Below, piece after piece: positions 1 to 15,099 of a DNA stretch of 21,246 nucleotides. A model generated the notes under the pieces. It saw nothing but the letters and a program-made list of their open reading frames with translations, did no database searches and was not told where the DNA came from. The DNA comes from Pirellulaceae bacterium (GTDB taxonomy: Bacteria; Planctomycetota; Planctomycetia; Pirellulales; Pirellulaceae): NCBI GenBank assembly GCA_044359485.1, contig JBIKMB010000090.1:1-21246 (forward strand), given 5' to 3'. How positions within the stretch are numbered: the stretch's first letter is position 1; each line of letters begins with the position of its first letter. The position numbers and the translations under genes were made by a program.

Positions 1-1653
1 TTGCTGGCGATGATTAGGCTGGACTCAGGCGATATTGGCATCATAACGTTATTTGCTTTGGTGATTGGCTTATTGGGCTTGGCGACACCGTTGGCAGTCG
101 AGTCGTTAGTCAATACGGTGGTTTTTGGTCGTTATGTTCAGCCGATCATTATTTTGTCGCTGATGCTGTTTGTCTTTTTGATGTTCTCCGGCTTTCTCCG
201 AATATTGCAATCTTATGCGGCGGAGATTATTCAGCGACGCATGATGGTTCGCGTGGTAGGCGACCTAGCGAATCGAATACCTCGCGCGAACATCAAGCAA
301 TGGGACACTGTTTGGGGGCCAGAGCTAACAAACCGCTTCTTTGATGTGCTGACGCTTCAAAAGTCGGTTTCAACACTTTTTGTGGACGGAATCAGTTTGA
401 TCATGCAAACCATTATTGGTTTGGCATTGCTCGGTTTTTACCATCCATTCTTGCTCGGGTTTGACATCGTTTTAGTCGCTTGCGTCGTGGTTATCATTTT
501 GGTTTTGGGGCGTGGTGGTATCAAAACGGCTGAGAATGAATCGATTGTAAAGTACAAAGTTGCTCATTGGTTGCAGGATTTAGCTGGGGCGACAACGGCT
601 TTTAAGATTCATGGTGGCCGGCAGTTGGCGGTCGACCGAGCCAACCGATTGATGGGTGAGTATGTCGCGATGAGGAGTCGCCATTTTCGCGTGTTGTTAC
701 GACAGAATGCGGCGGGGATGATTCTTTACGCAGTCGCTTCAACCGCTCTGTTGGGCTTGGGTGGGTGGTTGGTTGTGCAGGGGCGATTGTCACCGGGTCA
801 ATTGGTCGCGGCAGAACTAATTGTCACGGTGATTCTTGGGTCATTCATGAAAATTGGAAAGCAAGTTGAGACCTTTTTTGATTTGACTGCCGGTGTCAAT
901 AAACTTGGACACCTTCTCGACCTGGAGACTGATCCGCCAGGACGCTTGATTGATGTCGGTACTGGGCCTGCTCCGGTGCACTGGACCAATCTAGCCATTG
1001 AGATAGAGAATACGCACAAGGAAATGCACTTCGAAGACTATACGATCGAAGCTGGTGAAACGGTTGCGATTGTCGGGCCCAGTGGATATGGCAAGTCGCT
1101 CCTGGCGGAGGCTTTGGTGGGAATGAGGAGTCCTTGTAGTGGCTATATTGAAATCGAAGGAATCGAAGCTCGTGAAGCTTCGCGATTGAGCGATGGTGGC
1201 ATGGCTGCAATGGCTGGCGGCCGCCATGTCTTTCATGGTACTGTGGCAGAGAATATTCATCTCGGTCGTCCCACGGTAACCGATGCGGATGTGCGAGAGA
1301 GTTTGCGCAAGGTTTTGGCTTGGGATGAAGTGCTCAAATTGCCCGAGGGGATGGAGACACCATTGCTCACTGGCGGGCGTCCCTTGTCTAGCGGCCAGAT
1401 TGACCGGCTGATGATTGCCAGAGCGATCGCCGGTTCGCCCAGAGTGCTTATCCTGGATGGGGCGTTAGATGCTTTGCCGATCGATGTTCGTCAAGGAATA
1501 TGGAACAATTTGACCAATCCGAAAACAGCGACGATCATCGTGATCACCAACGAGCCAGACATCATACAGAGATGTGATAAAGTAGTGAGTTTGCCTGGAG
1601 TGGGCGGTTCAGGGGTAGTTGGTAAATTGGACTCTTCACATGCTTTTGCGTAA
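1..1653 (+). CDS. ABC transporter, fused transmembrane domain (six predicted TM helices, type I exporter fold) plus C-terminal nucleotide-binding domain; HlyB/T1SS-type. The 5' end is probably truncated by the window edge, since TM1 begins at about residue 12. The NBD motifs are degenerate.
   Basis: The translation has six hydrophobic helices in the first ~300 aa. These are followed by Walker A GPSGYGKS, ABC signature LSSGQIDRL and a Walker B-like LILDGALDAL in which Gly replaces the catalytic Glu. The H-loop region reads ITNEP with no His, and no clear Q-loop Gln is present. The ORF begins at nt 1 only because TTG is accepted as a start codon. Confidence 0.85.
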   Translation: MLAMIRLDSGDIGIITLFALVIGLLGLATPLAVESLVNTVVFGRYVQPIIILSLMLFVFLMFSGFLRILQSYAAEIIQRRMMVRVVGDLANRIPRANIKQWDTVWGPELTNRFFDVLTLQKSVSTLFVDGISLIMQTIIGLALLGFYHPFLLGFDIVLVACVVVIILVLGRGGIKTAENESIVKYKVAHWLQDLAGATTAFKIHGGRQLAVDRANRLMGEYVAMRSRHFRVLLRQNAAGMILYAVASTALLGLGGWLVVQGRLSPGQLVAAELIVTVILGSFMKIGKQVETFFDLTAGVNKLGHLLDLETDPPGRLIDVGTGPAPVHWTNLAIEIENTHKEMHFEDYTIEAGETVAIVGPSGYGKSLLAEALVGMRSPCSGYIEIEGIEAREASRLSDGGMAAMAGGRHVFHGTVAENIHLGRPTVTDADVRESLRKVLAWDEVLKLPEGMETPLLTGGRPLSSGQIDRLMIARAIAGSPRVLILDGALDALPIDVRQGIWNNLTNPKTATIIVITNEPDIIQRCDKVVSLPGVGGSGVVGKLDSSHAFA

Positions 1654-1669
1654 GACAGATGAGTAGACA

Positions 1670-3052
1670 ATGTCGACCAAATATAGACCATGGGTGAGCG
1701 GCTTTGAACTAGCGAACGAAGTAGGGGGGGATTTTCCTGCCCTATTGCTTGTTCGCTCGGTCCGCTGGATTCGCAAATTAGCCTACTACACCATGTTTGG
1801 TCTCTTGTTAGTTTTAATCGCAATGGCAGCATTGCCGTGGCAGCAAACCTCCAGAGGCGAAGGCACGGTTTCCGCTCTCAATCCGCAAGAACGGCCGCAG
1901 CAAGTGAAGTCGCAGTATGATGGCATCGTCAAGCGAATTGCGGATGGGATGGTAGAAGGAAGAAGGGTTAAGAAAGGGGATTTTATCCTAGAGTTAGAAC
2001 CGACTGCGGCAGAGGAGTTAGCCCAGACCGATGCGATCTTGAATTTGTTGGAAGAGCAGTTGCGAGCCGAGCAATCCGAGTACGAGTTGTATCAATCCCA
2101 AGTGGAGCTAGCCGAATCAACACGGGATGCCAACATAGAGAAGCAGGAACTGGCGATTCAGACGGCGGAGTTTAAGTTGCAGGAAAAAGATTCGCTGATT
2201 CGCAAGTACAAGGTTGAATTGGAGCTAGCAAAATTAAATCGGGCACAAAGCGATCGATTGATAGCTGTTGGTGTGGAAGCGGGATTGGATAATGCGGCGT
2301 ATCGGGCCAAAGAAAATAGTTTGATCGAGGAATTAACCGCCAATTCACAATCGCGATCGGCGATCGAAACGGAGATCGGTGAGAAAAAGGCGGAACTGAA
2401 CAAGATCATCGCCGAGGGTAATGACAAAGTTGCCAGTGCAAAGACGAAAGTTCAGAGCGCTTATGGCAAATTGCAGATGACACAGCAGAAGATGAATGAT
2501 ACTAAAATAAAGCGGGGAGCATTGGATCGACTCAATCAGGATGCTCCCTGCGATGGGGTGCTTTATCGTTTGGTGACAGCCGAAGGTGCTTCAACAGTCA
2601 AAAAGGGGGATGAATTGTTTACGATCGTTCCCGATGTGAAAGAGTTGGCTGTCGAAATGGTGGTTTCGGGTAACGATACCTCCTTTATTCGTGAGGGCCA
2701 GGAAGTTAGGTTGCAGTTTGAAGGCTGGCCAGCGGTCCAATTGATCGGTTGGCCCTCGATTGCGATTGGAACATTTGGCGGTCGGGTAAAGATGATTGAC
2801 AAGTTTAGCGAGGGGGCTGGCAAGTTTCGAATACTTGTGGTTCCAGATCCTGAGCTGGATGTATTGAGCGGTCAGCGCCCCTGGCCGACTGAGTTATTGC
2901 GTCAAGGAATGCGTGCCAACGGATGGGTCATGCTTAATGAAGTAACACTGGGATTCGAAATATGGCGACAGTTGAATGGATTCCCGCCATCGCTGGACGA
3001 AGATGCGTCAGGCGAAGAAGAGAAGGCCAAGAAAGTCAAGTTACCGAAGTAA
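1670..3052 (+). CDS. HlyD-family membrane fusion protein (periplasmic adaptor) of a type I secretion/efflux system
   Basis: It has a short cytoplasmic N-terminus, one TM helix (YYTMFGLLLVLIAMAALPW) and a long heptad-rich coiled-coil region (EQLRAEQSEYELYQSQVELAE...KYKVELELAKLN...). The C-terminal beta-rich segment (VKKGDELFTIVP..., QEVRLQFEGWP) is typical of HlyD/EmrA adaptors. The ATG at 1670 lies 17 nt after the ABC gene stop, consistent with an operon. Confidence 0.85.
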   Translation: MSTKYRPWVSGFELANEVGGDFPALLLVRSVRWIRKLAYYTMFGLLLVLIAMAALPWQQTSRGEGTVSALNPQERPQQVKSQYDGIVKRIADGMVEGRRVKKGDFILELEPTAAEELAQTDAILNLLEEQLRAEQSEYELYQSQVELAESTRDANIEKQELAIQTAEFKLQEKDSLIRKYKVELELAKLNRAQSDRLIAVGVEAGLDNAAYRAKENSLIEELTANSQSRSAIETEIGEKKAELNKIIAEGNDKVASAKTKVQSAYGKLQMTQQKMNDTKIKRGALDRLNQDAPCDGVLYRLVTAEGASTVKKGDELFTIVPDVKELAVEMVVSGNDTSFIREGQEVRLQFEGWPAVQLIGWPSIAIGTFGGRVKMIDKFSEGAGKFRILVVPDPELDVLSGQRPWPTELLRQGMRANGWVMLNEVTLGFEIWRQLNGFPPSLDEDASGEEEKAKKVKLPK

Positions 3053-4920
3053 CGCAGTCTTTTTTCGGAACTTCGTTAGGGGCGACTCGGCTCGTAATTT
3101 GTTTACTACTGTTCATTACCTTCAGTTGCGCTTTCCGTTCTCGGAGCGTAGCATGTCAGGATAATGAGGAGGAAGTGATTGAGCCACAGAGAGTCGTGGC
3201 GGAGAGTGTTGTGCCGGAAGTTGCTCAACCTCAGGGCGTTGAGCTACAGGCGATCCGTTCAGCAAGCGGTATTGTGATACCTGCGCAAGAGCCTCAAGTT
3301 CAGGAGGGTAGGCCGCAGGGAGATTTGGCATTGCCTGCAACCATAGCTCCTCAAGTAACACCGGGTCAGAAACCCAACCCGATCGGAAATCCGAACCCGC
3401 CTCAAGATCCGAACCAGATTATCGATCCGAGCAAATTGTCTCAACCTTCTTTCGAAGAACTTCAGTCACAGTTGCCAGAGGGATTAAGGCGAGCTATCGA
3501 GGAACCTGAGAATGAAGGGAATCCCTCGGCATTAACGTTGAGCGATGTGATTGCATCGGTTTATCGAGCTTATCCGACGATTGAAGCGATTCGAATTCAG
3601 CGGCAAGTGGCTGATGGCGATTTATTGGCAACCTTTGGAGAATTTGATACGAAGATTCTCGCCGATACGATGAACGAGCCGACGGGATTCTACGAAAATT
3701 ATCGCCATGGGATTGGAGTAGCTCGCAACACATGGTGGGGCGGTTACTTAGCTACCGGTTATCGCATTGGACGCGGCGAGTATCAGCCGTGGTATAAAGA
3801 GCGAGAGACCTTGGATGGTGGTGAATTCAAGTTGGCCTACATTCAGCCGCTTCTGCAGGGGCGTGACATTGACCCAAGACGCGTGGCGGTTTTTCAGAAT
3901 CGAATTGCTGTGCAGGTTGTAGAACCGCAATTACAGACCGCAATTCTGCAGACATCTTTAGAGGCCGCAACGGTATATTGGGACTGGTTAGCCGCGGGTC
4001 GGAATCTGCGTGTGCAGCAGCAGCTCTTGGCGTTGGCGAGGCAAAGAGTGGCGCAGATACGAGAATTAATTGCCGCCCAACGACGGGCCAAAGTTGATGA
4101 GCTTTTTAATGACGTGTTGATAGCGCAGCGTCTTACCAAGGTCATTGAATCCGAACAAAAATTGCAGCAATCAACATTTAAGCTTGCGCTTTATTTGCGA
4201 GATGAAGGTGGTTCACCTTTGGTAGCGGATACTGGTTGGTTGCCCTCTTCGTTTCCGCCGTTGAGCGATACGCGGGAGATCGATGTGCAGCAGCAGATCG
4301 ATGAAGCTTTAGATCGACGTCCGGAGTTGGTCGAATTGCGTTTGCAAAACGAGGCTGTCCAGTGGGATCGCCGTTGGGCACAAAACCAGTTGCAGGGGCG
4401 GCTCGATTTCGTGGGTGAGATATCGCAAGATGTGGGACCCACGACGAGCAAGAATCGAGACAAGCAGCAATTTGAAGGTGAATTTGGTTTGACCTATGAA
4501 TATCCTTGGCAACTGCGCAAGGCTCGCGGAAAGCTGCGATCGACGGCCGCTAAATTGCAGCAAATCGATCAGAAAAGTCGTTTGCAAATGGACAAGATTT
4601 CGCTGGAAGTCCAAGCCGCAATTGTCGCTTTGCAGCGATCCCAAGAAGTGATCGAGCAATTGGTAAAAGTGGTCGAAACCCAAACACAGGTACTGGAGTT
4701 GCAAGAGATTCAGTTCAATACAGGGCGTATTGACTTGATCGAACTCAATTTGCAGGAACAGTTAATTACCAACTTAAAAATGGATTTGATTATGGCTCAG
4801 CGGGATTGGTTTACGGCGCTGAGCCAATTGGCGACTGCTACCGGTCTAGACCCGCTCGAGCAGGCTTTGCGATTGGAGACGATTCCCGATGGTACCCAAT
4901 CACCGGCTCCAGGGCGGTGA
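2962..4920 (+). CDS. TolC-like outer membrane factor (outer membrane efflux protein family) with an N-terminal signal/anchor segment and a Pro/Gln-rich linker
   Basis: A hydrophobic signal-like segment (RLVICLLLFITFSCAF) is followed by a low-complexity linker rich in P, Q and N. Two OEP-type repeat halves then follow (LTLSDVIASVYRAYPTIEAIRIQRQ... and IDEALDRRPELVELRLQNEAVQWDRRW...) with long predicted coiled coils. The start is uncertain: the only canonical start in frame is the ATG at 2962, which overlaps the hlyD-like gene by 91 nt. Confidence 0.75.
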   Translation: MATVEWIPAIAGRRCVRRRREGQESQVTEVTQSFFGTSLGATRLVICLLLFITFSCAFRSRSVACQDNEEEVIEPQRVVAESVVPEVAQPQGVELQAIRSASGIVIPAQEPQVQEGRPQGDLALPATIAPQVTPGQKPNPIGNPNPPQDPNQIIDPSKLSQPSFEELQSQLPEGLRRAIEEPENEGNPSALTLSDVIASVYRAYPTIEAIRIQRQVADGDLLATFGEFDTKILADTMNEPTGFYENYRHGIGVARNTWWGGYLATGYRIGRGEYQPWYKERETLDGGEFKLAYIQPLLQGRDIDPRRVAVFQNRIAVQVVEPQLQTAILQTSLEAATVYWDWLAAGRNLRVQQQLLALARQRVAQIRELIAAQRRAKVDELFNDVLIAQRLTKVIESEQKLQQSTFKLALYLRDEGGSPLVADTGWLPSSFPPLSDTREIDVQQQIDEALDRRPELVELRLQNEAVQWDRRWAQNQLQGRLDFVGEISQDVGPTTSKNRDKQQFEGEFGLTYEYPWQLRKARGKLRSTAAKLQQIDQKSRLQMDKISLEVQAAIVALQRSQEVIEQLVKVVETQTQVLELQEIQFNTGRIDLIELNLQEQLITNLKMDLIMAQRDWFTALSQLATATGLDPLEQALRLETIPDGTQSPAPGR

Positions 4921-5097
4921 ACAGGTATTACGGTATCTCTGCAAATTGGAACGCAAAAGGAGGTTGAGGGAAAGGTTTTTTTCAACTTGAGGGTGAGTCG
5001 GGTTGGCGTGGTGCAAGCTAAAAGCGTATAACGCTTACCTTTCCAGCACTTCGATGCTAATTCGATTTTTAAGTTTATCCATCGAGATCATGACGCC

Positions 5098-6111
5098 GTG
5101 GCCTTTGCACATCTAGGACCTATCGCGATAGCCTTTCCTAAGCGACTGGAAACCAATGCTCAGCTGCAAGCGGAGTTTCCGGAGTGGGATTTAAACCAAA
5201 TTGAAGAGAAGACGGGTATAGGCGCCCGCTATGTTGCCGAGCCTGGGCAGTGCGCTTCCGATCTGGCCGTAGAGGCGTGCGAGAAACTGTTTGCCGAAAA
5301 TCAGGTCGATCGAGCGGAAATCGATTTTTTGCTGTTGTGCACCCAAACGCCCGATTATCCGTTGCCAACTACGGCATGCCTTCTGCAAAATCGGCTTGGG
5401 CTATCGACTGGGATAGGAGCTCTCGATTTCAACCTCGGCTGTTCGGGATTTGTCTACGGATTATCGCTAGCCGACGGGCTCATTCGCAGCGGTGTGGCGA
5501 AGAAGATATTATTGATCACAGCGGATACTTACTCCAAATACATCGATCGAGCCGATCGAAGCCTGCGTACAATTTTTGGCGATGCGGCGGCGGTAACGCT
5601 AATCGAGGCGAGAGAGCAGCAAGAGGTATCGGGTTTTGTTTTTGGTACCGATGGTAGCGGAGCCGATACGCTATTGGTAGGCGAAGGTGGTTGCCGCGGA
5701 CCCGAAGAAGCGATTCGACCTCGGGGAAGAAAACGGTGGAAAAGCCGCTTGTATATGGATGGCCCAAGCCTAATGGCTTTTACCGTCGAAGCGATTCCTA
5801 TGCTGGTTGATACCGTGGCGGCCAAAGCAGGAGTTCGTAAAGAATCGATCGATTGGTTTCTTTTGCACCAAGCGTCGTATAAAATGTTGTCTCAGTTGCA
5901 AGGACGAATTGGATATGGCAACGAGAAAATTCCGATTCGCTTGCGAGAGTATGGTAACACCGTCTCTTGCACGATTCCCTTATTGATTCACGATATGCGT
6001 AAAAGTGGTGAGATCAAACTGGGCTCGACCTTGATGTTGGTGGGTTTTGGTGTGGGGTGGTCCTGGGCAGGTTGCGTATGGCGGGAGACGCATGCGCCAT
6101 GTTTGGCTTAG
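5098..6111 (+). CDS. 3-oxoacyl-ACP synthase III (KAS III, FabH family)
   Basis: The N-terminal FabH pattern IAFPKRLETNAQL...EEKTGIGARY is present. A Cys-His-Asn triad is present in conserved contexts (NLGCSGFVYGL, FLLHQASYKML, EYGNTVSCTIPLL). Length is 337 aa with a GTG start. An Arg-rich insertion of roughly 9 aa (RGPEEAIRPRGRKRWKSR) precedes the MDG motif. Confidence 0.85.
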   Translation: MAFAHLGPIAIAFPKRLETNAQLQAEFPEWDLNQIEEKTGIGARYVAEPGQCASDLAVEACEKLFAENQVDRAEIDFLLLCTQTPDYPLPTTACLLQNRLGLSTGIGALDFNLGCSGFVYGLSLADGLIRSGVAKKILLITADTYSKYIDRADRSLRTIFGDAAAVTLIEAREQQEVSGFVFGTDGSGADTLLVGEGGCRGPEEAIRPRGRKRWKSRLYMDGPSLMAFTVEAIPMLVDTVAAKAGVRKESIDWFLLHQASYKMLSQLQGRIGYGNEKIPIRLREYGNTVSCTIPLLIHDMRKSGEIKLGSTLMLVGFGVGWSWAGCVWRETHAPCLA

Positions 6112-6650
6112 AAGGTAAATTGCTCATCGCTTCGCCACAATTGCAGGATCCGAATTTCTATCGGTCTGTGGTTTTCATTATTCGGCACGACGAAGAAGGA
6201 GCATATGGTTTGGTCGTCAATCGTCCAACCAATCAATGCGTCGCCAAAGTAATGGAAATGCTCCTAGAGAGCCCGTGTCATCGCTCGGGCTTTATCATGA
6301 ACGGCGGGCCCGTCGAAGGCCCCTTGGTGGTTCTTCACGATTCCCCCAGCACATCCGATATCGAATGTGGTCATGAGCTATACCTGGCCAGTTGCCAAGA
6401 ACGCGTGCGTGAACTTATGGCCATCGATGATGGGCATGCACTGATTTTTGATGGTTACTCCGGTTGGGGCCCCGGACAACTCGAAGAAGAGTTGAAGATT
6501 GGGGGATGGTTGGTCGCCGAAACCGATGTTTCCGAGCTTTTCGGCGAAAACGCCGAGATTTGGGAACGTACATTGAGGCGAATCGGCCGTGACATCATCG
6601 CCTCAATTACGGGTAATGTCCCGTTGCCACCCGATCCAACGATCAACTAA
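6099..6650 (+). CDS. YqgE/AlgH family protein (UPF0301/DUF179)
   Basis: The family's N-terminal signature is present (LEGKLLIASPQLQDPNFYRSVVFIIRHDEEGAYGLVVNRP). The ATG at 6099 is preferred over the ORF-track start at 6057, which would overlap the FabH-like gene by 55 nt. Confidence 0.75.
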   Translation: MFGLEGKLLIASPQLQDPNFYRSVVFIIRHDEEGAYGLVVNRPTNQCVAKVMEMLLESPCHRSGFIMNGGPVEGPLVVLHDSPSTSDIECGHELYLASCQERVRELMAIDDGHALIFDGYSGWGPGQLEEELKIGGWLVAETDVSELFGENAEIWERTLRRIGRDIIASITGNVPLPPDPTIN

Positions 6651-6819
6651 CTTTTCGGTAACGGTAGCCATTCGAAGGTATCCGAACCAATGCCGGTCGA
6701 CTTGGTTTAAAATCATTCCCTTCCGGACCTGGATTTCGTGAAAAATAGCGCGAGGATTTGTTCCAGCTTCGAATTGGTTGAACCTCCAAGCCGTCGGATG
6801 GTCGATACCAGTCCTTATC

Positions 6820-6845
6820 GGGAATTCGTTAAAATGCGAATTCCC
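6820..6845. promoter_or_regulatory. Perfect 9-bp inverted repeat GGGAATTCG-N8-CGAATTCCC in the 376-nt leader upstream of the FAAL-ACP-AOS gene; candidate operator/regulatory hairpin
   Basis: Read directly from the sequence: gggaattcg ttaaaatg cgaattccc. It lies about 180 nt upstream of the ATG at 7027. No T-tract follows it, so it is not a classical terminator. Confidence 0.3.
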
Positions 6846-7026
6846 TGTAAATAGTGGCCTTACTATGGTGGCCTCGTTTGGGGCGTGAATTTTTGGAAGT
6901 TGTTAGGTACAATCCGCTATATTCTCTAGCTTTCGTAAACCCTGCAGATGGGAAGTTTGCAGGGGGAGACCCTTTGGTCTGGAGCGAATGTTGGAATTGG
7001 CGGGAGTTAGCAAGCATGGGTGAACC

Positions 7027-10000
7027 ATGAATGAGTTGGAGCCTGCGGACGTATCGAAATATTTTCCGACGTACGCTGTTCCTCAGACCGATTTAGTTTC
7101 GGCTGCACAGTTTTGGGCAGCTAAGACTCCAGACAATCCTGTGTTCTACTTTACCGATGGTGAAGATGGTGAGGATGTATGTCTGACGTATCGGCAGTTG
7201 GATCAGGCAGCGCGTGCGATTGCTTCGCGCCTTCAGCAAGCGGGTAGTGCCGAAGGGCAAAGGGTATTGTTGCTTTATCCGCCGGGACTCGATTTCGTGG
7301 TCGGTTTCTTTGGCACACTGTATGCCGGCGCGATTGCGGTTCCAGCGTTTCCTCCTCGCAAGAATCGCAGGGGGGCCCGCATTCAAAGTATCGCGGAGGA
7401 TTGCTCGGCGAATTGGGCGTTGAGCATCACCAGTGTTTGTGATTTGATTCATTCGGACGACAGCGCTCAGCAGGATTTGACGGGTGTGTCGATATTGGCC
7501 ACCGATCAAATCTCGTTGTCTCTCGCAGATCAATATAAGCCGGTAGCGATCAACCAGTTGGCACCTGCCGTTTTGCAATACACCTCCGGCTCTACTGGGC
7601 AACCGAAGGGTGTGGTTTTGAGCCATGCTTGTTTGGTGCGAAATTCTGAATTGATTTTGCTGGCCTTTGAACCGGGGCCTGGGGGAGGCTGCAGTTGGTT
7701 GCCGTTGTATCATGACATGGGACTGGTGGGTGGAGTTTTGGAACCGGTCTTTTTGGGACGTCCCAATGTTTTGATGAGTCCGATGAGTTTCTTGCAGCGG
7801 CCGGCAAGATGGTTGCGAACGATATCCAAATATCGTGTCGCCGTCAGTGGTGGACCGAATTTTGCTTATCAACTCTGCGTCGACAAAGTGACCGAGGCGG
7901 ACATGGAGGGGATCGACTTAAGTTGTTGGTCGGTCGCTTATAACGGAGCCGAACCGGTTCGGGCATCGACCTTAACGCAGTTTAGTGAGAAGTTTGAGAA
8001 ATATGGTTTCAATAAATCCGCATTTCTTCCATGTTATGGGATGGCTGAAACGACGTTGATTGTTACCGGTGGACCCACATCGACCCGTCCTTTCTTCCGA
8101 ACCTTTGATGCTCAGGCACTGGATCAGCGCAAAGTGCAACCGCTTGCTGCGGACGATGGATCGGACAAGTGCCGAACGTTGGTCGGTTGCGGAGCTGTAT
8201 TGTCCAATGAAAACGTGATTGTGGTGGATCCGGACACGTTGGAGGAGCTGCCGCCAGGGCGAGTGGGAGAGATTTGGATACAGAGCCCGAGTGTGGGCAA
8301 AGGATATTGGCGGAAACCGCAGGAAAGCCAGCGGACATTTCAGGCATTTACGGTTGCAGGCCGAGGGCCCTTTTTGCGGACGGGCGACTTAGGTTTTCTG
8401 CATGAGAATCAGTTGTTTGTCGCGGGTCGATTGAAGGACATGATCATTGTCCGCGGGGTGAATCGCTATCCTCAAGATATTGAGTTGACTGTCGAAGAAT
8501 CGCACAAGAGTATCCAGTCTGGCTCGGTGGCGGCGTTTTCCTTGCAAGTCGATGAACGCGAGCGACTGGTCGTTACGGCAGAAGTCCAGCGTGGTGCTCA
8601 GCAGAATTGGGACGAAGTGATACAGGCGATTCGTCGTAGAGTTACCGAAGTACATGAACTCCCTCCCGAAGCCATCGCGTTGGTCCGCTTTGGAACTCTC
8701 CCGAAAACCTCGAGCGGAAAAATTCAGCGGCATGCCTGCATGAATGATTACAAAAACAATGCGTTGAAATTGGTGGCGCATTGGAAGTTGGGCGAAGTGC
8801 AAATGCTTAAGCAGGAGCCGATGATTGCGGCCTCGACCATTGATGCGCCGGTTCGAGATAGTGGTTCGATCAAGAGTCTATTGAGCGACCCCAAGCTGAA
8901 TGAAAAAGATCCGCATCCAGAAATTGTACGCGTCGTGATAGCAGCGGTGAAAGCGATCGCTCAAGAGCGGGCCGAAAATGTAAGTATTGATACGAACATC
9001 GTCTTGGACTTGGGGCTTGATTCGTTGGAACGATTGCAGATTGCGCATTCCTTGGAACAGCAATTTGGGGGTCGGTTCCCTGAGGATATCTTGCAAGATA
9101 TTGAAACGGTGCGGCAGGTATCGGCAGCGATCGAGGAATTGTTTGGAGTCGAACGCATTCATCGCAGTTTGACCGAGGCGGTTGCTGCAGAAGAAGTCTT
9201 ATACAGTCGCGAAGTGACACCCGAGGATTATCAATTTGATTTGATTCCCGAGTATCGTCGTCTCAAGATGACGATGGCCGAACTGTTATCGACCGGAGTG
9301 CGCAATCCTTATTTTGCCGCGCATCAAGGCGTGGTTCGCGACACGACAACGATCGGTGGTCGCGAGTTGATCAGTTTCGCATCGTATAACTATCTTGGCA
9401 TGAGCGGTGATCCCGCCGTCAACAAGGCTGTGGTGGAAGCGGTTCACAAATATGGAACCAGTTGCTCGGCATCGCGTTTGGTGAGTGGCGAAAAAGACCT
9501 GCACCAAAAACTAGAGCGTCGCATCGCCAAGTGGATCGGCGTCGAAGATAGTATTGTGATGGTGGGGGGGCATGCGACCAATGAATCGGTGATTGGGCAT
9601 TTGCTCGGTCCTGGCGATTTGATTTTGCATGATTCGTTATCCCACAATAGTATCGTGCAAGGAGCAATACTCTCGGGTGCAAGAAGACGTGCATTCCCGC
9701 ACAATGATTGGCGAGCGCTCGAACGAATCCTGCAAGATATCCGCGACAAGTATCGACGTGTGTTGGTGATTGTCGAAGGCGTCTACAGCATGGATGGTGA
9801 TTATCCCGACTTGCCAAAGTTTGTTGACATCAAGCAGCGAAACAAATGTTGGTTGATGGTCGATGAAGCGCATTCCATCGGCACCATGGGTAAGACGGGA
9901 CGTGGTATTAGCGAACACTTTGGTCTAGATGCCAATGTCGTCGACATTTGGATGGGAACGCTCAGCAAGTCGTTCGGTTCATGCGGCGGCTATATCGCTG

Positions 10001-10467
10001 GCCGTCGTGAATTGATTGAGTATTTGAAGTATACGACTCCTGGGTTCGTCTTCAGTGTCGGTTTGTCACCCTCCAATGCGGCTGCCGCACTTGCTTCGTT
10101 AGATGTTTTGGAAGCGGAACCGATGCGGGTCGAGCGTTTGCGACAAAACTCTCAATTGTTTTTGGAAGAAGCCCGCAAACGCGGACTCAATACGGGCGAT
10201 TCGTGCGGAACTCCGGTGGTTCCCGTGATTTTGGGTAATTCGTTCATCGCGCTAAAACTAGCCGATCGCATGGTTAGCCAAGGCATCAATGTGCTACCGA
10301 TCTTGTACCCAGCGGTTGAAGAAGCTGCAGCACGCTTGCGTTTCTTCATCAATTCGACGCATTCTGAAAATCAAATATTGTTCGCAGTACGATTGGTTGA
10401 GGAGTCGTTACGCGATCTCTATCCCGAGTACTTTGTGAATTCCGATTCCGATCGATCGGTCGCTTAG
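7027..10467 (+). CDS. Tri-domain fatty acyl-AMP ligase (FAAL) - acyl carrier protein - alpha-oxoamine synthase (class II aminotransferase, BioF/KBL/SPT/CqsA family) fusion protein
   Basis: Adenylation motifs are present in order: YTSGSTGQPKGVVLSH, CYGMAETT, RTGDLGF and PKTSSGKIQR. The ACP Ppant site is LDLGLDSLERLQIAHSLEQQFG. The C-terminal PLP-dependent AOS domain carries NYLGM, DEAHSIGTMG and the PLP-lysine motif GTLSKSFGSCGGY. The ORF is a single uninterrupted 1146-aa reading frame. Confidence 0.9.
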   Translation: MNELEPADVSKYFPTYAVPQTDLVSAAQFWAAKTPDNPVFYFTDGEDGEDVCLTYRQLDQAARAIASRLQQAGSAEGQRVLLLYPPGLDFVVGFFGTLYAGAIAVPAFPPRKNRRGARIQSIAEDCSANWALSITSVCDLIHSDDSAQQDLTGVSILATDQISLSLADQYKPVAINQLAPAVLQYTSGSTGQPKGVVLSHACLVRNSELILLAFEPGPGGGCSWLPLYHDMGLVGGVLEPVFLGRPNVLMSPMSFLQRPARWLRTISKYRVAVSGGPNFAYQLCVDKVTEADMEGIDLSCWSVAYNGAEPVRASTLTQFSEKFEKYGFNKSAFLPCYGMAETTLIVTGGPTSTRPFFRTFDAQALDQRKVQPLAADDGSDKCRTLVGCGAVLSNENVIVVDPDTLEELPPGRVGEIWIQSPSVGKGYWRKPQESQRTFQAFTVAGRGPFLRTGDLGFLHENQLFVAGRLKDMIIVRGVNRYPQDIELTVEESHKSIQSGSVAAFSLQVDERERLVVTAEVQRGAQQNWDEVIQAIRRRVTEVHELPPEAIALVRFGTLPKTSSGKIQRHACMNDYKNNALKLVAHWKLGEVQMLKQEPMIAASTIDAPVRDSGSIKSLLSDPKLNEKDPHPEIVRVVIAAVKAIAQERAENVSIDTNIVLDLGLDSLERLQIAHSLEQQFGGRFPEDILQDIETVRQVSAAIEELFGVERIHRSLTEAVAAEEVLYSREVTPEDYQFDLIPEYRRLKMTMAELLSTGVRNPYFAAHQGVVRDTTTIGGRELISFASYNYLGMSGDPAVNKAVVEAVHKYGTSCSASRLVSGEKDLHQKLERRIAKWIGVEDSIVMVGGHATNESVIGHLLGPGDLILHDSLSHNSIVQGAILSGARRRAFPHNDWRALERILQDIRDKYRRVLVIVEGVYSMDGDYPDLPKFVDIKQRNKCWLMVDEAHSIGTMGKTGRGISEHFGLDANVVDIWMGTLSKSFGSCGGYIAGRRELIEYLKYTTPGFVFSVGLSPSNAAAALASLDVLEAEPMRVERLRQNSQLFLEEARKRGLNTGDSCGTPVVPVILGNSFIALKLADRMVSQGINVLPILYPAVEEAAARLRFFINSTHSENQILFAVRLVEESLRDLYPEYFVNSDSDRSVA

Positions 10468-10569
10468 GAATCGTAAAGCTTCTTGGCAAAATTCGCAGGG
10501 GATGTTGCCGACACGTTTTTGAAGTTGTACAGTTGACCAAGTTTGACTGTGGCAAAAGGAGACGTATCG

Positions 10570-11073
10570 GTGACAGAACCAGCGAAATCAGGTGGAATGC
10601 TCGATTGGCTCAAATCGATGATACCCGGCTATTCGGGCTATCAAGAATTTGAATCTCGCAGAGAAGACGATCGCAAAACGCGAAAATTTTTGATCGATCG
10701 ATTGCAAGAATACAAACGCTTATCGCAGAGCTACACCAAAAATTTTCTACAATCGGCTCAGTTGGATCAAATTGCCAAAGGTGAAAAACTGAGAGCCGAT
10801 ATCGATGCGCTGCAGCAAAAAATTGAAGCATCGGTGGATGGAAAAAGCAATTGGTTTACGCAGTCAAAGCCAGATGCGGCAGCAAGTTTGAGGTTGAGCC
10901 AGATTGATGGGGCGATTGTGGCCGACTTGGAACGACTTGCGAAATATCTGGCCGATCCAGAAGTCCCTTCTTTGGAACCTTTGGTGGTGGATTTAGATAA
11001 GGCGAGTGAATCACTGGGTGAAATGCGGGCAAAGTGGGAACGCAGGCTATCGATATTGCGAGGCGAGAATTAG
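10570..11073 (+). CDS. Hypothetical protein, largely alpha-helical/coiled-coil, with no recognisable family
   Basis: The ORF is in frame from the TTG at 10543. The GTG at 10570 is preceded by AAGGAG (10556-10561) with an 8-nt spacer. The ATG at 10597 (MLDWLKSM...) is an alternative start. The gene ends 12 nt before the SPFH gene, so the two are likely co-transcribed. Confidence 0.5.
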   Translation: MTEPAKSGGMLDWLKSMIPGYSGYQEFESRREDDRKTRKFLIDRLQEYKRLSQSYTKNFLQSAQLDQIAKGEKLRADIDALQQKIEASVDGKSNWFTQSKPDAAASLRLSQIDGAIVADLERLAKYLADPEVPSLEPLVVDLDKASESLGEMRAKWERRLSILRGEN

Positions 11074-11085
11074 AAAGGACTTGGT

Positions 11086-12447
11086 ATGGTTTTTCGATTG
11101 GAAGTCATCGACTTTTTTGATCCCTCCGGTGACATGGTTGTGGGGCGAGTTCCCGCCGATGGAACTGCGGCTATTCAGTTGGGAGCTCAATTGCTCGTTC
11201 AACAAGCGCAAGAAGCGGTTTTTTTTCGCGATGGCAAAGCGATGGACGTCTTCGGCCCCGGTCGCTATACGCTGACGACTGCCAATGTGCCCATTCTTAC
11301 TCGCATATTGACCATCCCGTGGGAGAAGTCTCCCTTTCAAGCGGCAGTCTATTTTGTTGGCAAGCAAACCTTTGTCGATCAGCGGTGGGGTACCAAAACT
11401 CCGATCACGATGCGAGATCCTGATTTTGGATTGGTGCGTTTGCGCGGTTTCGGCAAGTTTGGCTTTCGCGTTATCGATGCACCCTTATTGATCAATTCAT
11501 TGGTTGGAACACGCGGACGCTTTACCACCGAACAAGTCACAAGTTACTTGAAGGATGTGATCGTTTCAGGCTTAACCGATTTTTTGGCGACGGCAGGTAT
11601 CGGTCTGATCGATCTCCCCTCAAAATTTGATGAAGTGGCCGCCGCCGCGCGACTCAAACTTGCCGATTCGTTCAACAAATTTGGGATCGAGCTTACCGAT
11701 TTCGTTATCAACAGTATCACTCCACCGGAAGAGGTCGAGAAAGCAATTGACGCTCGTTCCGGCATGACTGTCTTAGGCGACTTGAAATCGTATACGCTTT
11801 ATCAAGCAGCCAATTCGATGGCAGCAGCAGGTCAGAACCCGGCTGTGGGGACAGGTATGGGCTTCGGCATGGGGATGGCATTTCCAGCAGCGTTGCAACA
11901 AGCCTTTCTGCCGGGGGGCGTGGGGGCCTCGCCGCCGCAACAAGTTCCCGTCGCTGCGCAGCCCGCGACTCCTTCAGGGACGTCTGCCGCTGCGGCTCCT
12001 AAGCTGAATTTGAACGCGCTCGAATCCTTTAAACCCCCGATAGACATTCGCTCGTTGGTACGTCAAGTCGCCAGCTCGTCTCATTGGAGCTTGAAGGAGC
12101 AAGGGGATCAGTGGGCGATGACTGTCCCGGTCGGCAGTTTGCGGAAACAAGTCGTTTATGCCAACTTCGGACGCAAAGATGATGATGGGCATGAGCTGAT
12201 TGGATTTTGGTCTCCTTGTGGGCCCGCCAATCCCAATAATGCCGTGACCTTATTGAGGTTTAATCATCAAACCGTTCATGGGGCTTTCGCGTTCCAACCC
12301 AAGGAACAGGGGGGGGAAGAGTTAGTTCTCCGCAGCAATTTGTTGGCAGATACAATCGATGCGTTCGAAGTGCTGCGCGTGGTAAGCGCGATTGCGTTTC
12401 AAGCGGATGAAGTCGAGCAGCAACTGACGGGAGCGGACGAACTTTAA
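11086..12447 (+). CDS. SPFH/band-7 domain protein of the group often annotated 'putative virion core protein' (PF13421-like), with a low-complexity Gly/Met and Pro/Ala linker and a distinct ~120-aa C-terminal domain
   Basis: The N-terminal pattern FRDGKAMDVFGPGRYTLTTANVPIL...SPFQAAVYFVGKQTFVDQRWGTKTPITMRDPDFGLVRLRGFGKFGFRV matches the conserved block of this SPFH subgroup. The linker reads GMGFGMGMAFPAALQ...PPQQVPVAAQPATPSGTSAAAAP. The C-terminal globular region reads YANFGRKDDDGHELIGFWSPCG... Confidence 0.75.
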   Translation: MVFRLEVIDFFDPSGDMVVGRVPADGTAAIQLGAQLLVQQAQEAVFFRDGKAMDVFGPGRYTLTTANVPILTRILTIPWEKSPFQAAVYFVGKQTFVDQRWGTKTPITMRDPDFGLVRLRGFGKFGFRVIDAPLLINSLVGTRGRFTTEQVTSYLKDVIVSGLTDFLATAGIGLIDLPSKFDEVAAAARLKLADSFNKFGIELTDFVINSITPPEEVEKAIDARSGMTVLGDLKSYTLYQAANSMAAAGQNPAVGTGMGFGMGMAFPAALQQAFLPGGVGASPPQQVPVAAQPATPSGTSAAAAPKLNLNALESFKPPIDIRSLVRQVASSSHWSLKEQGDQWAMTVPVGSLRKQVVYANFGRKDDDGHELIGFWSPCGPANPNNAVTLLRFNHQTVHGAFAFQPKEQGGEELVLRSNLLADTIDAFEVLRVVSAIAFQADEVEQQLTGADEL

Positions 12448-12474
12448 CGTGCGCTGCAAGCTGCTGTGGCGACG

Positions 12475-12516
12475 AAAAAACCGTAGGTTCGCAGCAACAG
12501 AGCGAACCTACGGTTT
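12475..12516. terminator. Bidirectional rho-independent terminator between the convergent SPFH and glutathione peroxidase genes
   Basis: A perfect 12-bp stem ccgtaggttcgc / gcgaacctacgg (12481-12492 and 12502-12513) encloses a 9-nt loop. It is flanked by AAAAAA on the 5' side and TTT on the 3' side, so it can terminate transcription on either strand. Confidence 0.65.
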
Positions 12517-12585
12517 CATGTTTGTGAATCGGTTCCGTTTGCAAATCCTCGCCGACCGACAGCCAAGGGTGAGCAAAAGTTAGAG

Positions 12586-13188
12586 TTATTTACCTAAAGC
12601 CGATTCGATCTGCTTGACCAGCTCGTCACCGTCTGGTGCCGTTGTAGGCGCAAATCGACCCACGACGCTGCCATCACGTCCAATCAGGAATTTTTCAAAA
12701 TTCCAGCTCACTTTGCCCGATCCCTTGGGTTTGGTTTCCAGTGCGGTGAGATGTTTGAAGAAGGGAGCAGCCTTGTCGCCATTGACATCGATTTTGGCAA
12801 ACATATCGAATGTCACGCCGTAGTTCTTGGTGCAAAATGACTTGATCTCAGCGGCTGAGCCAGGTTCTTGGCTTCCAAATTGATTGCAAGGGAACCCGAG
12901 AACCACCAAACCCTTGTCTTTGTATTTTTCATGGAGAGCTTGGAGTCCTTCGTACTGACCGGTTAAGCCGCATTCGCTGGCGACGTTTACCACCAAAATT
13001 ACTTTTCCGGCGTAGGAATTGAGGTCGACTTTTTTGCCATCGAGAGTTTCCATTTCGAAGGCTAGGGCAGGAGGTGCCTTCTTGGCTTTGTCATCGGCGA
13101 CACCTGAGGAACTCATGGCGAATACTCCCAAAAGAATTGCAGCGGAACAGAGACCGGCCAAACTTTTGGCCCAATTTTTTTTCATCAT
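12586..13188 (-). CDS. gpx: Glutathione peroxidase (Cys-type, non-selenium) with an N-terminal signal peptide
   Basis: GPx signatures are present: VNVASECGLTGQYEGL (catalytic Cys), LGFPCNQFGSQEPG and WNFEKFLI. The start is assigned to the MMKKNWAKSLAGLCSAAILLGVFA signal peptide rather than the upstream TTG-initiated extension. Confidence 0.88.
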   Translation of the reverse strand: MMKKNWAKSLAGLCSAAILLGVFAMSSSGVADDKAKKAPPALAFEMETLDGKKVDLNSYAGKVILVVNVASECGLTGQYEGLQALHEKYKDKGLVVLGFPCNQFGSQEPGSAAEIKSFCTKNYGVTFDMFAKIDVNGDKAAPFFKHLTALETKPKGSGKVSWNFEKFLIGRDGSVVGRFAPTTAPDGDELVKQIESALGK

Positions 13189-13651: not shown

Positions 13652-13725
13652 GCCAGCATAGCTTCAATTGGCAGAGCACCGCATTCGTAATGCGGGGGTT
13701 GTGGGTTCGATTCCCACTGCTGGCT
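13652..13725 (+). tRNA. tRNA-Thr (anticodon CGU)
   Basis: Manual cloverleaf folding gives a perfect 7-bp acceptor stem (GCCAGCA/TGCTGGC), a D stem GCTT/GAGC and an anticodon stem CCGCA/TGCGG with loop TTCGTAA (anticodon CGT). The T arm is GTGGG-TTCGATT-CCCAC. No CCA is encoded. Confidence 0.85.
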
Positions 13726-13773
13726 CTTTTATCGCTACCATTTCTGAATCGTTTCCCGAGGAGTCTTGGCCAA

Positions 13774-15099
13774 ATGGCTCAAGGAGCAGTAGTAGATCTT
13801 CGCGACATTGTTCTGTCCAACAACACGTTCGGTCCTGCCGAAATCAGGCAACTTTGCCAGGGTATTGCTGAGGACTTTACTCAGTTTACAACCTTGCGAG
13901 ATGCAGTGCAGGAATTGGAAGGGGTGGAGGAACGAAGTCCAGCCACTTCGACCCGTCTTGGTGTTTGTCTGTATTTGATTGGTCGCATACCGTTAGCCGA
14001 GCAAGTGTTGCTGAAAGGTGACGGTGGTGCTTTGGCTCAATATTATTTGGGCAAGGTATGCTTCCAGCAAGAGCAGTACGATCGGGCGCTCGGTTATTTC
14101 GATGCGGCCAAGAAAGCGGGTTACGACCCTGAGCAATGCCAACTTGCGACTGCCGAAGCGTTGCGATATCAGGGCAAGTTCCAAGAAGCGATGAACTTGT
14201 TGGACAACATGTTCGGACCGGTGGAGCAAACGGCTGAGTATTTATATCAGCGTGGAGCGACGACGGCGGCATTGGGAGGCAATCCCAACGAAGTAACAAC
14301 GTATTTCCAGCGAGCGGTTTCTGCGGATGGTCGTCATGCAGGAGCTTTGTTCGGCTTGGCGATGGAAAACGATCGATTTGGCAATGATGATGACGCATTG
14401 CGATTGTACGAAAGAGCGGCTGGTGTTTTCCCAACGCATATCGGCACATTGATTAACCTCGGAATCGTTTACGAAGATCGTAACGAATACGGGAAGGCCC
14501 AATTGTGTTACAAACGTATTCTCGAAGTGTATCCCGATCATCCTCGCGCTCGTCTGTACATGAAGGATGCGTCTGCATCAGGTAATTCGTACTATGATGA
14601 GGAGTCGGCGAAACGGACCGAGCGATTGTCGCAATTGCTCAGTATTCCAGTTGCCGATTTCGAACTATCGGTTCGCAGTCGTAATTGTTTGCAAAAGATG
14701 GGTGTGCGAACGTTGGGGGATTTGACCCGCACGACCGAGCAGGAATTGTTGGCCAGCAAGAATTTTGGCGAAACCTCTTTGGTCGAAATTCGCGATATGT
14801 TGTCCTCCAAGGGACTCAGTTTGGGGCAGTTCTCGCATGAACGCCGCGAACCCGAGCCTTCCGTGGATTTATCAACCTTGTCTCCGGATCAAGCGGCTAT
14901 TCTCGATCAGCCGATTTCTAATTTGAATTTGTCGGTACGTGCCCGCAAGTGTATGGTTCGCTTGGGAATCAACACGATTGGTGAGTTGATTCGCAAGACT
15001 GGCGACGACTTGCTGGAGTGCAAGAACTTCGGCGTTACCAGTTTGAATGAAGTGCGGCAGAAGCTCACTGGTATGAATCTAAAATTGCGTGGTGATTGA
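13774..15099 (+). CDS. TPR-repeat protein with two tandem C-terminal RNA polymerase alpha-subunit CTD-like (helix-hairpin-helix) domains
   Basis: Several TPR-like helical repeats are present (YYLGKVCFQQEQYDRALGYFDAAKKAGY..., INLGIVYEDRNEYGKAQLCYKRILEVYPDHPRA). Two copies of the alpha-CTD motif follow: FELSVRSRNCLQKMGVRTLGDLTRTTEQELLASKNFGETSLVEIRDMLSSKGLSLG and LNLSVRARKCMVRLGINTIGELIRKTGDDLLECKNFGVTSLNEVRQKL. Both closely resemble the E. coli RpoA CTD (LELTVRSANCLK...[22 protein letters not shown]). The start is set at the ATG at 13774 because the longer ORF would overlap the tRNA. Confidence 0.8.
   Translation: MAQGAVVDLRDIVLSNNTFGPAEIRQLCQGIAEDFTQFTTLRDAVQELEGVEERSPATSTRLGVCLYLIGRIPLAEQVLLKGDGGALAQYYLGKVCFQQEQYDRALGYFDAAKKAGYDPEQCQLATAEALRYQGKFQEAMNLLDNMFGPVEQTAEYLYQRGATTAALGGNPNEVTTYFQRAVSADGRHAGALFGLAMENDRFGNDDDALRLYERAAGVFPTHIGTLINLGIVYEDRNEYGKAQLCYKRILEVYPDHPRARLYMKDASASGNSYYDEESAKRTERLSQLLSIPVADFELSVRSRNCLQKMGVRTLGDLTRTTEQELLASKNFGETSLVEIRDMLSSKGLSLGQFSHERREPEPSVDLSTLSPDQAAILDQPISNLNLSVRARKCMVRLGINTIGELIRKTGDDLLECKNFGVTSLNEVRQKLTGMNLKLRGD

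Follow-up and report, generated by a model that had tools for sequence, protein, structure and literature searches.

A complete gene of an uncultured Pirellula-like planctomycete predicted by homology to encode a stand-alone three-domain lipid-forming enzyme

Alpha-oxoamine synthase (AOS) domains fused to carrier proteins occur in pigment and toxin pathways, RedL and SxtA being examples. For bacterial sphingolipids, Olea-Ozuna et al. reportedly described in 2021 a set of five genes in Caulobacter. A 2013 in silico survey of pyridoxal phosphate (PLP)-dependent domains fused to carrier proteins named PigH as the only carrier-fused member then characterised. It listed a protein of Blastopirellula marina, A3ZWL3, as "AOS, A-CP-PLP2" with a question mark for specificity, cluster type and product alike, and Microscilla marina A1ZVW4 was also entered as "A-CP-PLP2" (PMC3870968). 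Here we examined a gene that joins a fatty acyl-AMP ligase (FAAL), an acyl carrier protein (ACP) domain and an AOS domain in a single 1146-residue protein. It lies in a 21,246-nucleotide stretch of DNA from a Pirellulaceae bacterium (assembly GCA_044359485.1, contig JBIKMB010000090.1), the whole of which we call the window. A full-text literature search, which included FAAL terms paired with AOS, serine palmitoyltransferase (SPT) or PLP, found no experimental study of a FAAL-ACP-AOS protein, and a 2025 review of FAALs does not mention PLP or oxoamine enzymes. An earlier reading of the window made from its letters alone (the sequence-only reading) had held that the product class is experimentally unestablished, and the literature search agrees with it. 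The rarity which that reading implied was overstated, since the architecture is widespread and was already in the 2013 survey for B. marina. The protein is real, conserved and uncharacterised, yet mechanistically predictable and already catalogued in silico.

A Pfam scan of the open reading frame (ORF) at 7027-10467 (+) gave four matches in a single reading frame, and all three catalytic units that had been claimed for one 1146-residue protein were recovered. The features of the gene are as follows.

7027..10467, + strand: complete FAAL-ACP-AOS tri-domain gene with ATG start, 1146 amino acids, stop codon included (from the ORF list and translation)
7114..8310, + strand: N-terminal adenylation domain of the FAAL (AMP-binding, PF00501), residues 30-428, E 1e-65
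8068..8133, + strand: FAAL-specific insertion GGPTSTRPFFRTFDAQALDQRK, about residues 348-369, after YGMAETT, as compared with E. coli FadD
8437..8775, + strand: C-terminal subdomain of the FAAL (PF23024, AMP-dom_DIP2-like), residues 471-583, E 1e-13, with the A10 motif PKTSSGK at 559
8818..8832, + strand: PMIAA motif in the FAAL-ACP linker, residues 598-602, from its conservation in the clade
8932..9132, + strand: acyl carrier domain (PP-binding, PF00550), residues 636-702, E 1e-10; Ser666 is encoded by nucleotides 9022-9024
9364..10377, + strand: PLP-dependent AOS domain (Aminotran_1_2, PF00155), residues 780-1117, E 1e-48; Lys981 is encoded by nucleotides 9967-9969

The DSL site that had been read by eye in the carrier domain is present as LGLDSL, with Ser666 as its serine, and the PLP lysine of the AOS domain, Lys981, likewise sits in GTLSKSFG as had been noticed. 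The ACP (636-702) precedes the AOS domain (780-1117), which is fused downstream of a carrier domain as in proteins of the PigH/RedL/SxtA type. No ketosynthase (KS), acyltransferase (AT), thioesterase or reductase (R) domain was detected in the ORF by Pfam. An AlphaFold2 model built with 96 homologues as input has three well-folded domains (mean pLDDT 85.3) separated by low-confidence linkers at 590-624 and 715-730; it confirmed the folded domains and added nothing on the substrate. We also considered whether the fusion could be an assembly or frameshift artefact. At least 24 contigs, drawn from independent metagenome assemblies, encode an identical protein, 91 index blocks list it, and on every such contig that we read the gene order is FabH, DUF179, fusion gene, hypothetical gene and Band_7, matching the window. 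A frameshift or chimera is therefore excluded.

We consider it likely that this protein converts a free fatty acid, by way of an acyl-S-ACP and a PLP-dependent decarboxylative condensation, into a free long-chain alpha-amino ketone that would then probably be reduced in trans. The N-terminal FAAL would adenylate a free, probably long-chain fatty acid without acyl transfer to CoA, and the acyl group would move onto the phosphopantetheine arm at Ser666 of the protein's own ACP. The PLP enzyme, its cofactor bound as a Schiff base to Lys981, would bind an amino acid and join it to the acyl-S-ACP in a condensation that gives off CO2. The thioester would be cleaved in the process, and the long-chain alpha-amino ketone set free with no need of a thioesterase or reductase release domain. 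A Claisen condensation that breaks the thioester is the established mechanism of the AOS family, and an ACP gene that adjoins the SPT gene of S. wittichii is a precedent for ACP-delivered acyl groups (PMC6148460). With KS, AT, thioesterase and reductase domains all missing from the ORF, release would be by the Claisen condensation itself. An NAD(P)H-dependent reductase encoded elsewhere would most likely reduce the ketone to a sphingoid-like amino alcohol, and a phosphopantetheinyl transferase (PPTase) would also be needed in trans. Every chemical step of this scheme, together with the chain length and the reduction, is predicted from homology, and on the same basis the gene would give its host, an uncultured Pirellula-like planctomycete, a stand-alone enzyme of three domains that forms a lipid. 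The sequence-only reading had proposed the same passage from acyl-AMP to acyl-ACP to amino ketone, and with domains and residues intact it is the best-supported account, the chemistry being that expected of homologues. Its description of the enzyme as self-contained is apt up to the amino ketone; beyond that point it does not apply, since relatives point to a fused or separate NAD-dependent reductase and a PPTase would have to act in trans. If the predicted chemistry is correct, most Pirellulales possess one gene with which a sphingoid-like amino ketone can be made from a free fatty acid.

The adenylation core motifs are intact (YTSGSTG at 185, GDLG at 453, GRLKD at 467 and PKTSSGK at 559), as expected of the ANL superfamily. 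Against solved structures the region scored 554 bits with PDB 7R7E/F/G, in a full-length alignment without large gaps and with about 50% identity as judged by eye; 7R7E is the FAAL domain of a polyketide synthase (PKS) of Picosynechococcus PCC 7002 (2025 FAAL review). The next-best matches were a Legionella FAAL and mycobacterial FadD32, FadD23 and FadD28. Relative to the acyl-CoA ligase E. coli FadD the region has a 22-residue insertion (348-369) where the FAAL-specific insertion sits, and this segment aligned with the FAAL structure 7R7F save for a 3-residue gap. The best NCBIfam matches were also FAAL models, every one under its cut-off (PRK05850, 462 bits against 775; PRK12476, 403 against 922; FadD32, 397 against 975); these models describe stand-alone actinobacterial or proteobacterial FAALs. 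By the insertion and the whole-domain alignment with 7R7E, the adenylation domain is a true FAAL, as had been read from the letters.

In the carrier domain G663, D665 and S666 are invariant among 96 homologues. The linker that precedes it holds a pentapeptide, PMIAA, which is kept in 120/120 homologues with at least 59% identity and in 0/184 more distant tri-domain proteins. Tryptophans at -12 and -9 and a leucine at -5 relative to PMIAA are nearly fixed, and the linker was modelled by AlphaFold2 with pLDDT below 50. From this pattern PMIAA looks like a clade-specific short linear motif.

For the AOS domain, alignment with E. coli BioF and Kbl, Arabidopsis LCB2a, human SPTLC2 and the Thermus BioF/KBL enzyme puts His873, Asp946, His949, Thr978, Lys981 and Arg1103/Arg1105 at the catalytic positions of these enzymes. 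His873, Asp946, His949, Lys981 and Arg1103/1105 are invariant across these five reference enzymes and the 96 homologues, and the domain thus has the Schiff-base Lys, PLP-stacking His, Asp/His pair and carboxylate-binding Arg typical of the fold-type I PLP domain of the AOS superfamily; the assignment made from the letters thus withstood alignment, with the catalytic Lys, His, Asp and Arg all in place. Placement within the superfamily was less straightforward. The domain scored 349 bits with the bioF model TIGR00858 (cut-off 426), 304 with the KBL model PRK06939 (460) and 220 with the ALAS model (339). With three Spt models it scored 313 bits (NF047600, cut-off 640), 278 (NF047599, 500) and 204 (NF047603, 670), far under the cut-off in each case. 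With the CqsA-type model NF005526 it scored 167 bits against a cut-off of 428, the second-weakest of ten AOS-family matches in the top 25.

The last of these scores bears on a suggestion of the sequence-only reading, namely that the product could be a precursor of the CAI-1/LAI-1 type, the protein then being a synthase of alpha-hydroxyketone quorum-sensing signals like CqsA or LqsA. Such enzymes belong to the same superfamily, and an amino ketone could in principle be converted to a hydroxyketone. Yet this is the least similar of the named characterised AOS families, and no CqsS/LqsS-type sensor kinase gene is adjacent to the fusion gene. CqsA and LqsA are moreover, to our knowledge, stand-alone enzymes that lack a FAAL-ACP portion. 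We rejected this role as scarcely credible, and of the products put forward it has the least support.

The highest NCBIfam score of the AOS domain, that of TIGR00858, raises another possibility, in which the protein would serve planctomycetes as their BioF: pimelate would be activated by the adenylation domain in the manner of BioW, the AOS domain would condense pimeloyl-ACP with alanine to give 8-amino-7-oxononanoate for biotin, and the syntenic FabH would act like BioZ. A natural BioW-BioF fusion does exist (PMC9544090), JGI labels homologues of our protein "8-amino-7-oxononanoate synthase", one context has a BioD-like PF13500 gene some 1.2 kb upstream, and a FabH homologue is syntenic in nine relatives (L001-L009). 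However, TIGR00858 also gave 335-388 bits, always below 426, to eight fused AOS domains from diverse subclades, and the bioF match is therefore generic and uninformative. E. coli BioF is the most distant of the reference enzymes (29% identity), the adenylation domain is of the long-chain FAAL type and is not BioW, and the relatives are tied to reductases and lipid-tailoring genes and not to bio genes. When 100 loci (1.34 Mb) were searched by tblastn with E. coli BioB and BioA, we found one BioB-like gene 9 kb off and one weak aminotransferase. A role in biotin synthesis was accordingly rejected, and we regard it as very improbable.

Among solved structures the best matches to the AOS domain were LCB2a (243 bits) and SPTLC2 (225), followed by Thermus BioF/KBL (223), S. 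multivorum SPT (222), KBLs (about 200-211), S. paucimobilis SPT (174), and E. coli BioF and R. capsulatus ALAS (172 each). Over 395 aligned columns the domain was 36.9% identical to LCB2a, with lower values for SPTLC2 (36.1%), the Thermus enzyme (33.8%), Kbl (31.3%), the two bacterial SPTs (30.4% and 30.3%) and E. coli BioF (29.0%). The AOS domains of the window clade have a signature composed of SYNYLG, S[VC]SASRLVSG, GGH[AS]TNE, D[AS]LSHNSIVQG, LMVDEAHSIGTM, WMGTLSKSFGSCGGYIAG and ILYPAVEE.AARLRFF, four elements of which are common to LCB2 or SPTLC2. The LCB2-like loops are SYNYLG, ATN, DEAHSIG and KSFGSCGGYIAG, the last identical in Arabidopsis LCB2a. Gly382 and Ser384 of human SPTLC2 sit in this KSFGSCGGYIAG loop, and changes there affect the choice between serine and alanine, shifting the enzyme towards alanine (PMC6148460). 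Since the active-site loops match eukaryotic LCB2, serine is weakly favoured as the predicted amino-acid substrate; alanine or glycine is possible. The sequence-only reading had said that this substrate cannot be read by eye, and rightly so, as none of the aligned AOS residues that we checked separates serine, alanine and glycine users.

To place the domain we then built a neighbour-joining tree from 119 AOS domains and ran 60 bootstraps, a simple method applied with few reference sequences. The LCB2 pair was sister to a large fused clade that includes the window protein in 41/60 bootstraps. A grouping of the window AOS with S. multivorum SPT to the exclusion of LCB2 and Kbl was seen in 0/60, and the bacterial SPTs instead grouped with other fused proteins (P0184, P0204, P0214 and P0228) in 47/60. 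P0214 scored 354 bits with S. multivorum SPT, and from this score and the grouping it follows that FAAL-ACP fusions with a canonical Spt-type domain exist too and that the window protein is not among them. By scores and tree position, the window AOS lies outside every characterised AOS family. We noted that FAAL-ACP has become joined to at least two distinct AOS lineages, either by independent fusions or by divergence after fusion.

These data can be put together in a more specific version of our preferred explanation, in which the protein is an SPT-type enzyme whose product, 3-ketosphinganine, would go into a housekeeping sphingolipid or ceramide-like membrane lipid of Pirellulales, independently of the known bacterial Spt/CerR/bCerS genes. 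The closest solved relatives use serine, the KSFGSCGGYIAG loop is that of LCB2a, and the LCB2 pair is sister to the window clade. Conservation across Pirellulales (59-92% identity) resembles that of core metabolism, and a reductase link in relatives fits the step from 3-ketodihydrosphingosine (3-KDS) to sphinganine. A Black Sea study moreover reported Spt-like proteins in 138 Planctomycetota metagenome-assembled genomes (MAGs), some of the matches being parts of longer proteins (PMC11334938). Against this stand the low scores with all three Spt models, the want of any grouping with bacterial SPTs in the tree, where these join other fused proteins instead, the lack of a residue that tells serine users from alanine or glycine users, and the fact that we saw no ceramide synthase or ceramide reductase in the window, in a check made without a bCerS query sequence; epimerase/3-beta-HSD-type reductases do adjoin or fuse to some relatives. 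On balance we hold this version tentatively, as having somewhat less than an even chance. A bolder form of it, in which the clade may be the closest bacterial relative of eukaryotic LCB2/SPTLC2 and would make Pirellulales sphingoid bases from free fatty acids through a CoA-independent, ACP-tethered route separate from Spt/CerR/bCerS, is speculative and seems to us rather improbable. If it were true, sphingoid lipids would join the eukaryote-like lipid traits of Planctomycetes, and the finding would bear on the origin of the eukaryotic enzyme. The sequence resembles eukaryotic LCB2 rather than bacterial Spt, and this merits a proper phylogeny.

Several observations weigh against the proposed path from fatty acid to amino ketone and amino alcohol, or limit what may be said of its details. 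The AOS domain reaches no curated family cut-off (BioF, KBL, ALAS, CqsA or Spt), and for this reason the amino-acid substrate cannot be assigned. The LCB2 grouping, at 68% bootstrap in a neighbour-joining tree with few references, is a lead and not a result. The fatty acid chain is probably long, judging from the resemblance of the adenylation domain to long-chain FAALs. In the 21-kb window we found no reductase, N-acyltransferase or PPTase, and no partner gene is conserved across the 12 genomic and 80 metagenomic contexts that we compared. A full-text literature search (Planctomycetes, Pirellula, sphingolipid, ceramide) brought up no account of cultured Pirellulales that contain sphingolipids or long-chain bases, a point that bears on the SPT-type version in particular.

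The distribution of the family was examined at several depths. The nearest genome records are MAGs of a Planctomycetota bacterium (92% identity) and a Pirellula sp. (87%), followed by Pirellulaceae and Aureliella at 61-63%. A search of 5.8 billion proteins listed at least 120 full-length homologues of 59-92% identity, aligned over 97-100% of their length and with the same domains throughout; those that are named are Pirellula, Pirellulaceae or Planctomycetales. Across 96 homologues 132 residues are invariant, the catalytic ones included, and the gene appears to be under purifying selection. An exhaustive search of representatives clustered at 50% identity gave 23,230 proteins with E <1e-30, for which a match to any single domain of the three was enough. 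Of the top 150 representatives, dozens are about 1000-1160 residues long and match residues 20-1130 in a single stretch at 36-53% identity, and many others are PKS-sized (1436-2963 residues) with a FAAL at the start and the AOS domain later. One representative is from the cyanobacterium Okeania, and other homologues bear the names Moorea, Symploca, Phormidium and Nostoc. Given dozens of 50%-identity clusters that include cyanobacteria, this is a large, old family and not an oddity of one lineage. Some of its members have fused reductases, acyl-CoA dehydrogenases or PKS modules, and the wider family is a large unexplored source of amino-lipid chemistry.

It is from such relatives that the later steps of the pathway can be judged. 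A short-chain dehydrogenase/reductase (SDR) domain of the NAD-dependent epimerase/3-beta-HSD type is fused right after the AOS domain in P0128 (1454 residues), P0137, P0155 and P0138, and free-standing homologues of this SDR directly adjoin the fusion gene in metagenome loci L038, L058, L080 and L092. Genes of the wider epimerase family lie 3' of the fusion gene in L008 and L038; in ten long metagenome loci, no recurrent family was seen among the downstream genes besides one epimerase-type reductase. Other extensions include an alpha/beta-hydrolase after the AOS domain (P0244) and a second FAAL-ACP with a class-III aminotransferase (P0121). In Nostoc-type variants of 1689-1736 residues (P0292, P0294, P0296, P0316 and P0328) acyl-CoA dehydrogenase domains are present within the same protein and precede the AOS domain, which runs from about residue 1275 onward, and in the metagenome loci L075 and L076 an acyl-CoA dehydrogenase match directly follows the FAAL. 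This layout suggests that the acyl chain is desaturated on the carrier before condensation.

The homologues of Okeania, Phormidium and Moorea are about 45% identical to the window protein overall and 51-53% identical in the AOS domain. In all three genera the fusion gene heads a conserved cluster and is followed by genes for a sulfotransferase, a small protein of no known kind, an SDR, an acyl-CoA dehydrogenase, an SBF transporter and an alpha/beta-hydrolase:

L022, 10001-20632: cluster of Phormidium
L023, 10001-20047: cluster of Okeania
L024, 3540-13495: cluster of Moorea

Okeania and Phormidium have a TetR regulator gene upstream in divergent orientation, and the Moorea contig has only short unannotated ORFs there. 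The cluster has the look of a pathway to a long-chain amino-alcohol lipid that is sulfated, and we found no publication on a cyanobacterial FAAL-ACP-AOS/sulfotransferase cluster. Taking the SDR fusions together with the SDR-containing and cyanobacterial neighbourhoods, we infer that reduction of the amino ketone to an amino alcohol, with tailoring afterwards, is the usual course in the family; in the window organism the reductase would lie elsewhere in the genome.

The same observations could be taken to mean that the planctomycete protein supplies the starter of a specialised metabolite and not of a membrane lipid, for example an amino-alcohol lipid with sulfation or other tailoring, or alkylpyrazines that arise when the amino ketone dimerises, with its tailoring genes scattered in the genome. 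The cyanobacterial cluster, the many relatives within PKS-sized proteins and the Nostoc variants with their built-in acyl-CoA dehydrogenase domains all lend themselves to this idea, and in the window an ABC-HlyD-OEP exporter is encoded upstream. But the exporter is syntenic in only one relative (L002), no cyanobacterial partner genes were found near planctomycete fusion genes, and occurrence in very many Pirellulales MAGs at about 60% identity amid housekeeping neighbours (rplM-rpsI, rpoBC) is unlike that of an accessory cluster. We therefore think it unlikely that the gene serves such a pathway in Pirellulales.

The window as a whole has about 50% G+C and its genes are mostly on the + strand. 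Apart from the fusion gene it contains the following.

1-4920, + strand: ABC exporter (fused TMD and ATPase), HlyD-family adaptor and OEP/TolC-like outer-membrane protein, a tripartite export set
5098..6111, + strand: gene for a FabH-type beta-ketoacyl-ACP synthase (KAS) III (PF08541 and PF08545; NCBIfam PRK09352, 259 bits against a cut-off of 249)
6099..6650, + strand: AlgH/YqgE (DUF179) gene (PF02622, E 4e-37), its start at 6099 as called on the identical contigs
10570-12447, + strand: small coiled-coil-like hypothetical protein (167-176 amino acids), then an SPFH/Band_7_1 gene, the pair spaced 12 bases
downstream of Band_7, - strand: glutathione peroxidase gene (placed by the gene order of the window)
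13690-15099, + strand: TPR protein (469 amino acids) with two RNA polymerase alpha-CTD stretches (PF03118)
last genes of the window, in order: Tgt, amidohydrolase, Ser/Thr kinase and PIG-L deacetylase

The HlyD and OEP ORFs of the export set overlap by 91 bases, and the whole set is syntenic only in L002, the closest relative. AlgH is the most persistent upstream neighbour of the fusion gene (L001-L009, L017 and L029), and FabH is syntenic in the Pirellulaceae relatives L001-L009 and absent from other contexts. A block of FabH, AlgH, Metallophos and fusion gene is kept in these nine loci despite differing outer flanks, AlgH identity being 35-77% across them and 35-42% in the seven more distant of them. 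The Metallophos member of the block is a calcineurin-like, PrpE/ApaH-like phosphoesterase of 226-246 residues between AlgH and the fusion gene; in the window it is absent, with only a 376-bp gap (6651-7026, compared with 8948-10000 of L002) in its place and no remnant detected by tblastn. An operon of FabH and AlgH with the fusion gene was not established, the block being absent from L013-L016, L025, the P0115 contig and 79/80 metagenome loci. A shared neighbour was seen in only 1/80 metagenome loci, and elsewhere the neighbours are unrelated housekeeping genes such as leuCD, rplM-rpsI, rpoBC, fur and glyA. The stand-alone FabH is the sole condensing enzyme among the neighbours, and the ORF itself contains no KS or AT domain.

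Directly downstream of the fusion gene, the pair of hypothetical and Band_7_1 genes occurs only in the window, L001 and L002; the hypothetical protein has a weak match to the Leptospira LIMLP_15305 family. The TPR/alpha-CTD protein is 93-97% identical in L001 and L002, above any neighbouring gene and above the fusion gene itself (87-92%). A scan of 4900-12700 for promoters and terminators found sites no more numerous than in shuffled sequence and was thus of no help. In L025, a Thermoguttaceae MAG, a serine hydroxymethyltransferase gene (7444-8760, -) is located some 1.2 kb upstream of the fusion gene, on the other strand; this enzyme interconverts serine and glycine, and its position may be a coincidence.

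Compared with systems described by others, the window protein is nearest in listed architecture, as distinct from sequence, to A3ZWL3 and A1ZVW4 (PMC3870968), which have the same succession of AMP-binding, carrier protein and Aminotran_1_2 domains. A3ZWL3 comes, like the window protein, from a planctomycete of the Pirellulales, and both survey entries have been catalogued only. PigH (CP-CP-SerT) offers a functional parallel, its AOS domain acting on a substrate tethered to a carrier of the same protein, as we propose here. Proteins of the PigH/RedL/SxtA type nevertheless operate within PKS pathways on malonyl- or polyketide-derived units with KS/AT or partner enzymes, whereas the window protein consists of FAAL, ACP and AOS only.

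The split bacterial sphingolipid set of Caulobacter and Sphingomonas (acyl-ACP synthetase, dedicated ACP and Spt) follows the same logic of ATP activation, ACP loading and PLP-dependent Claisen condensation. In the window protein, by contrast, all three functions would reside in one polypeptide, the activator is a FAAL and not an AasS-type ligase, and the AOS domain falls outside the bacterial Spt clades. The eukaryotic enzymes LCB2a and SPTLC2 are the top-scoring solved relatives and have SYNYLG, ATN, DEAHSIG and KSFGSCGGYIAG in common with the window AOS, but they are membrane-bound heterodimers with LCB1 and small subunits, use acyl-CoA, and lack FAAL and ACP; at 36-37% their identity is too low for substrate specificity to be transferred.

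BioWF, a fusion of pimeloyl-CoA synthetase with 8-amino-7-oxononanoate synthase (PMC9544090), resembles the window protein as a natural union of an acid-activating enzyme with an AOS enzyme. It differs in that BioW belongs to an unrelated ligase family, and in that the fusion uses CoA without an ACP, is specific for a C7 diacid and serves biotin synthesis. For the front half of the protein the closest counterpart is the loading didomain of the Picosynechococcus PCC 7002 PKS (7R7E), in which a FAAL about 50% identical by eye is likewise followed by an in-cis ACP. There the acyl-ACP feeds a ketosynthase, whereas that of the window protein would feed a PLP enzyme.

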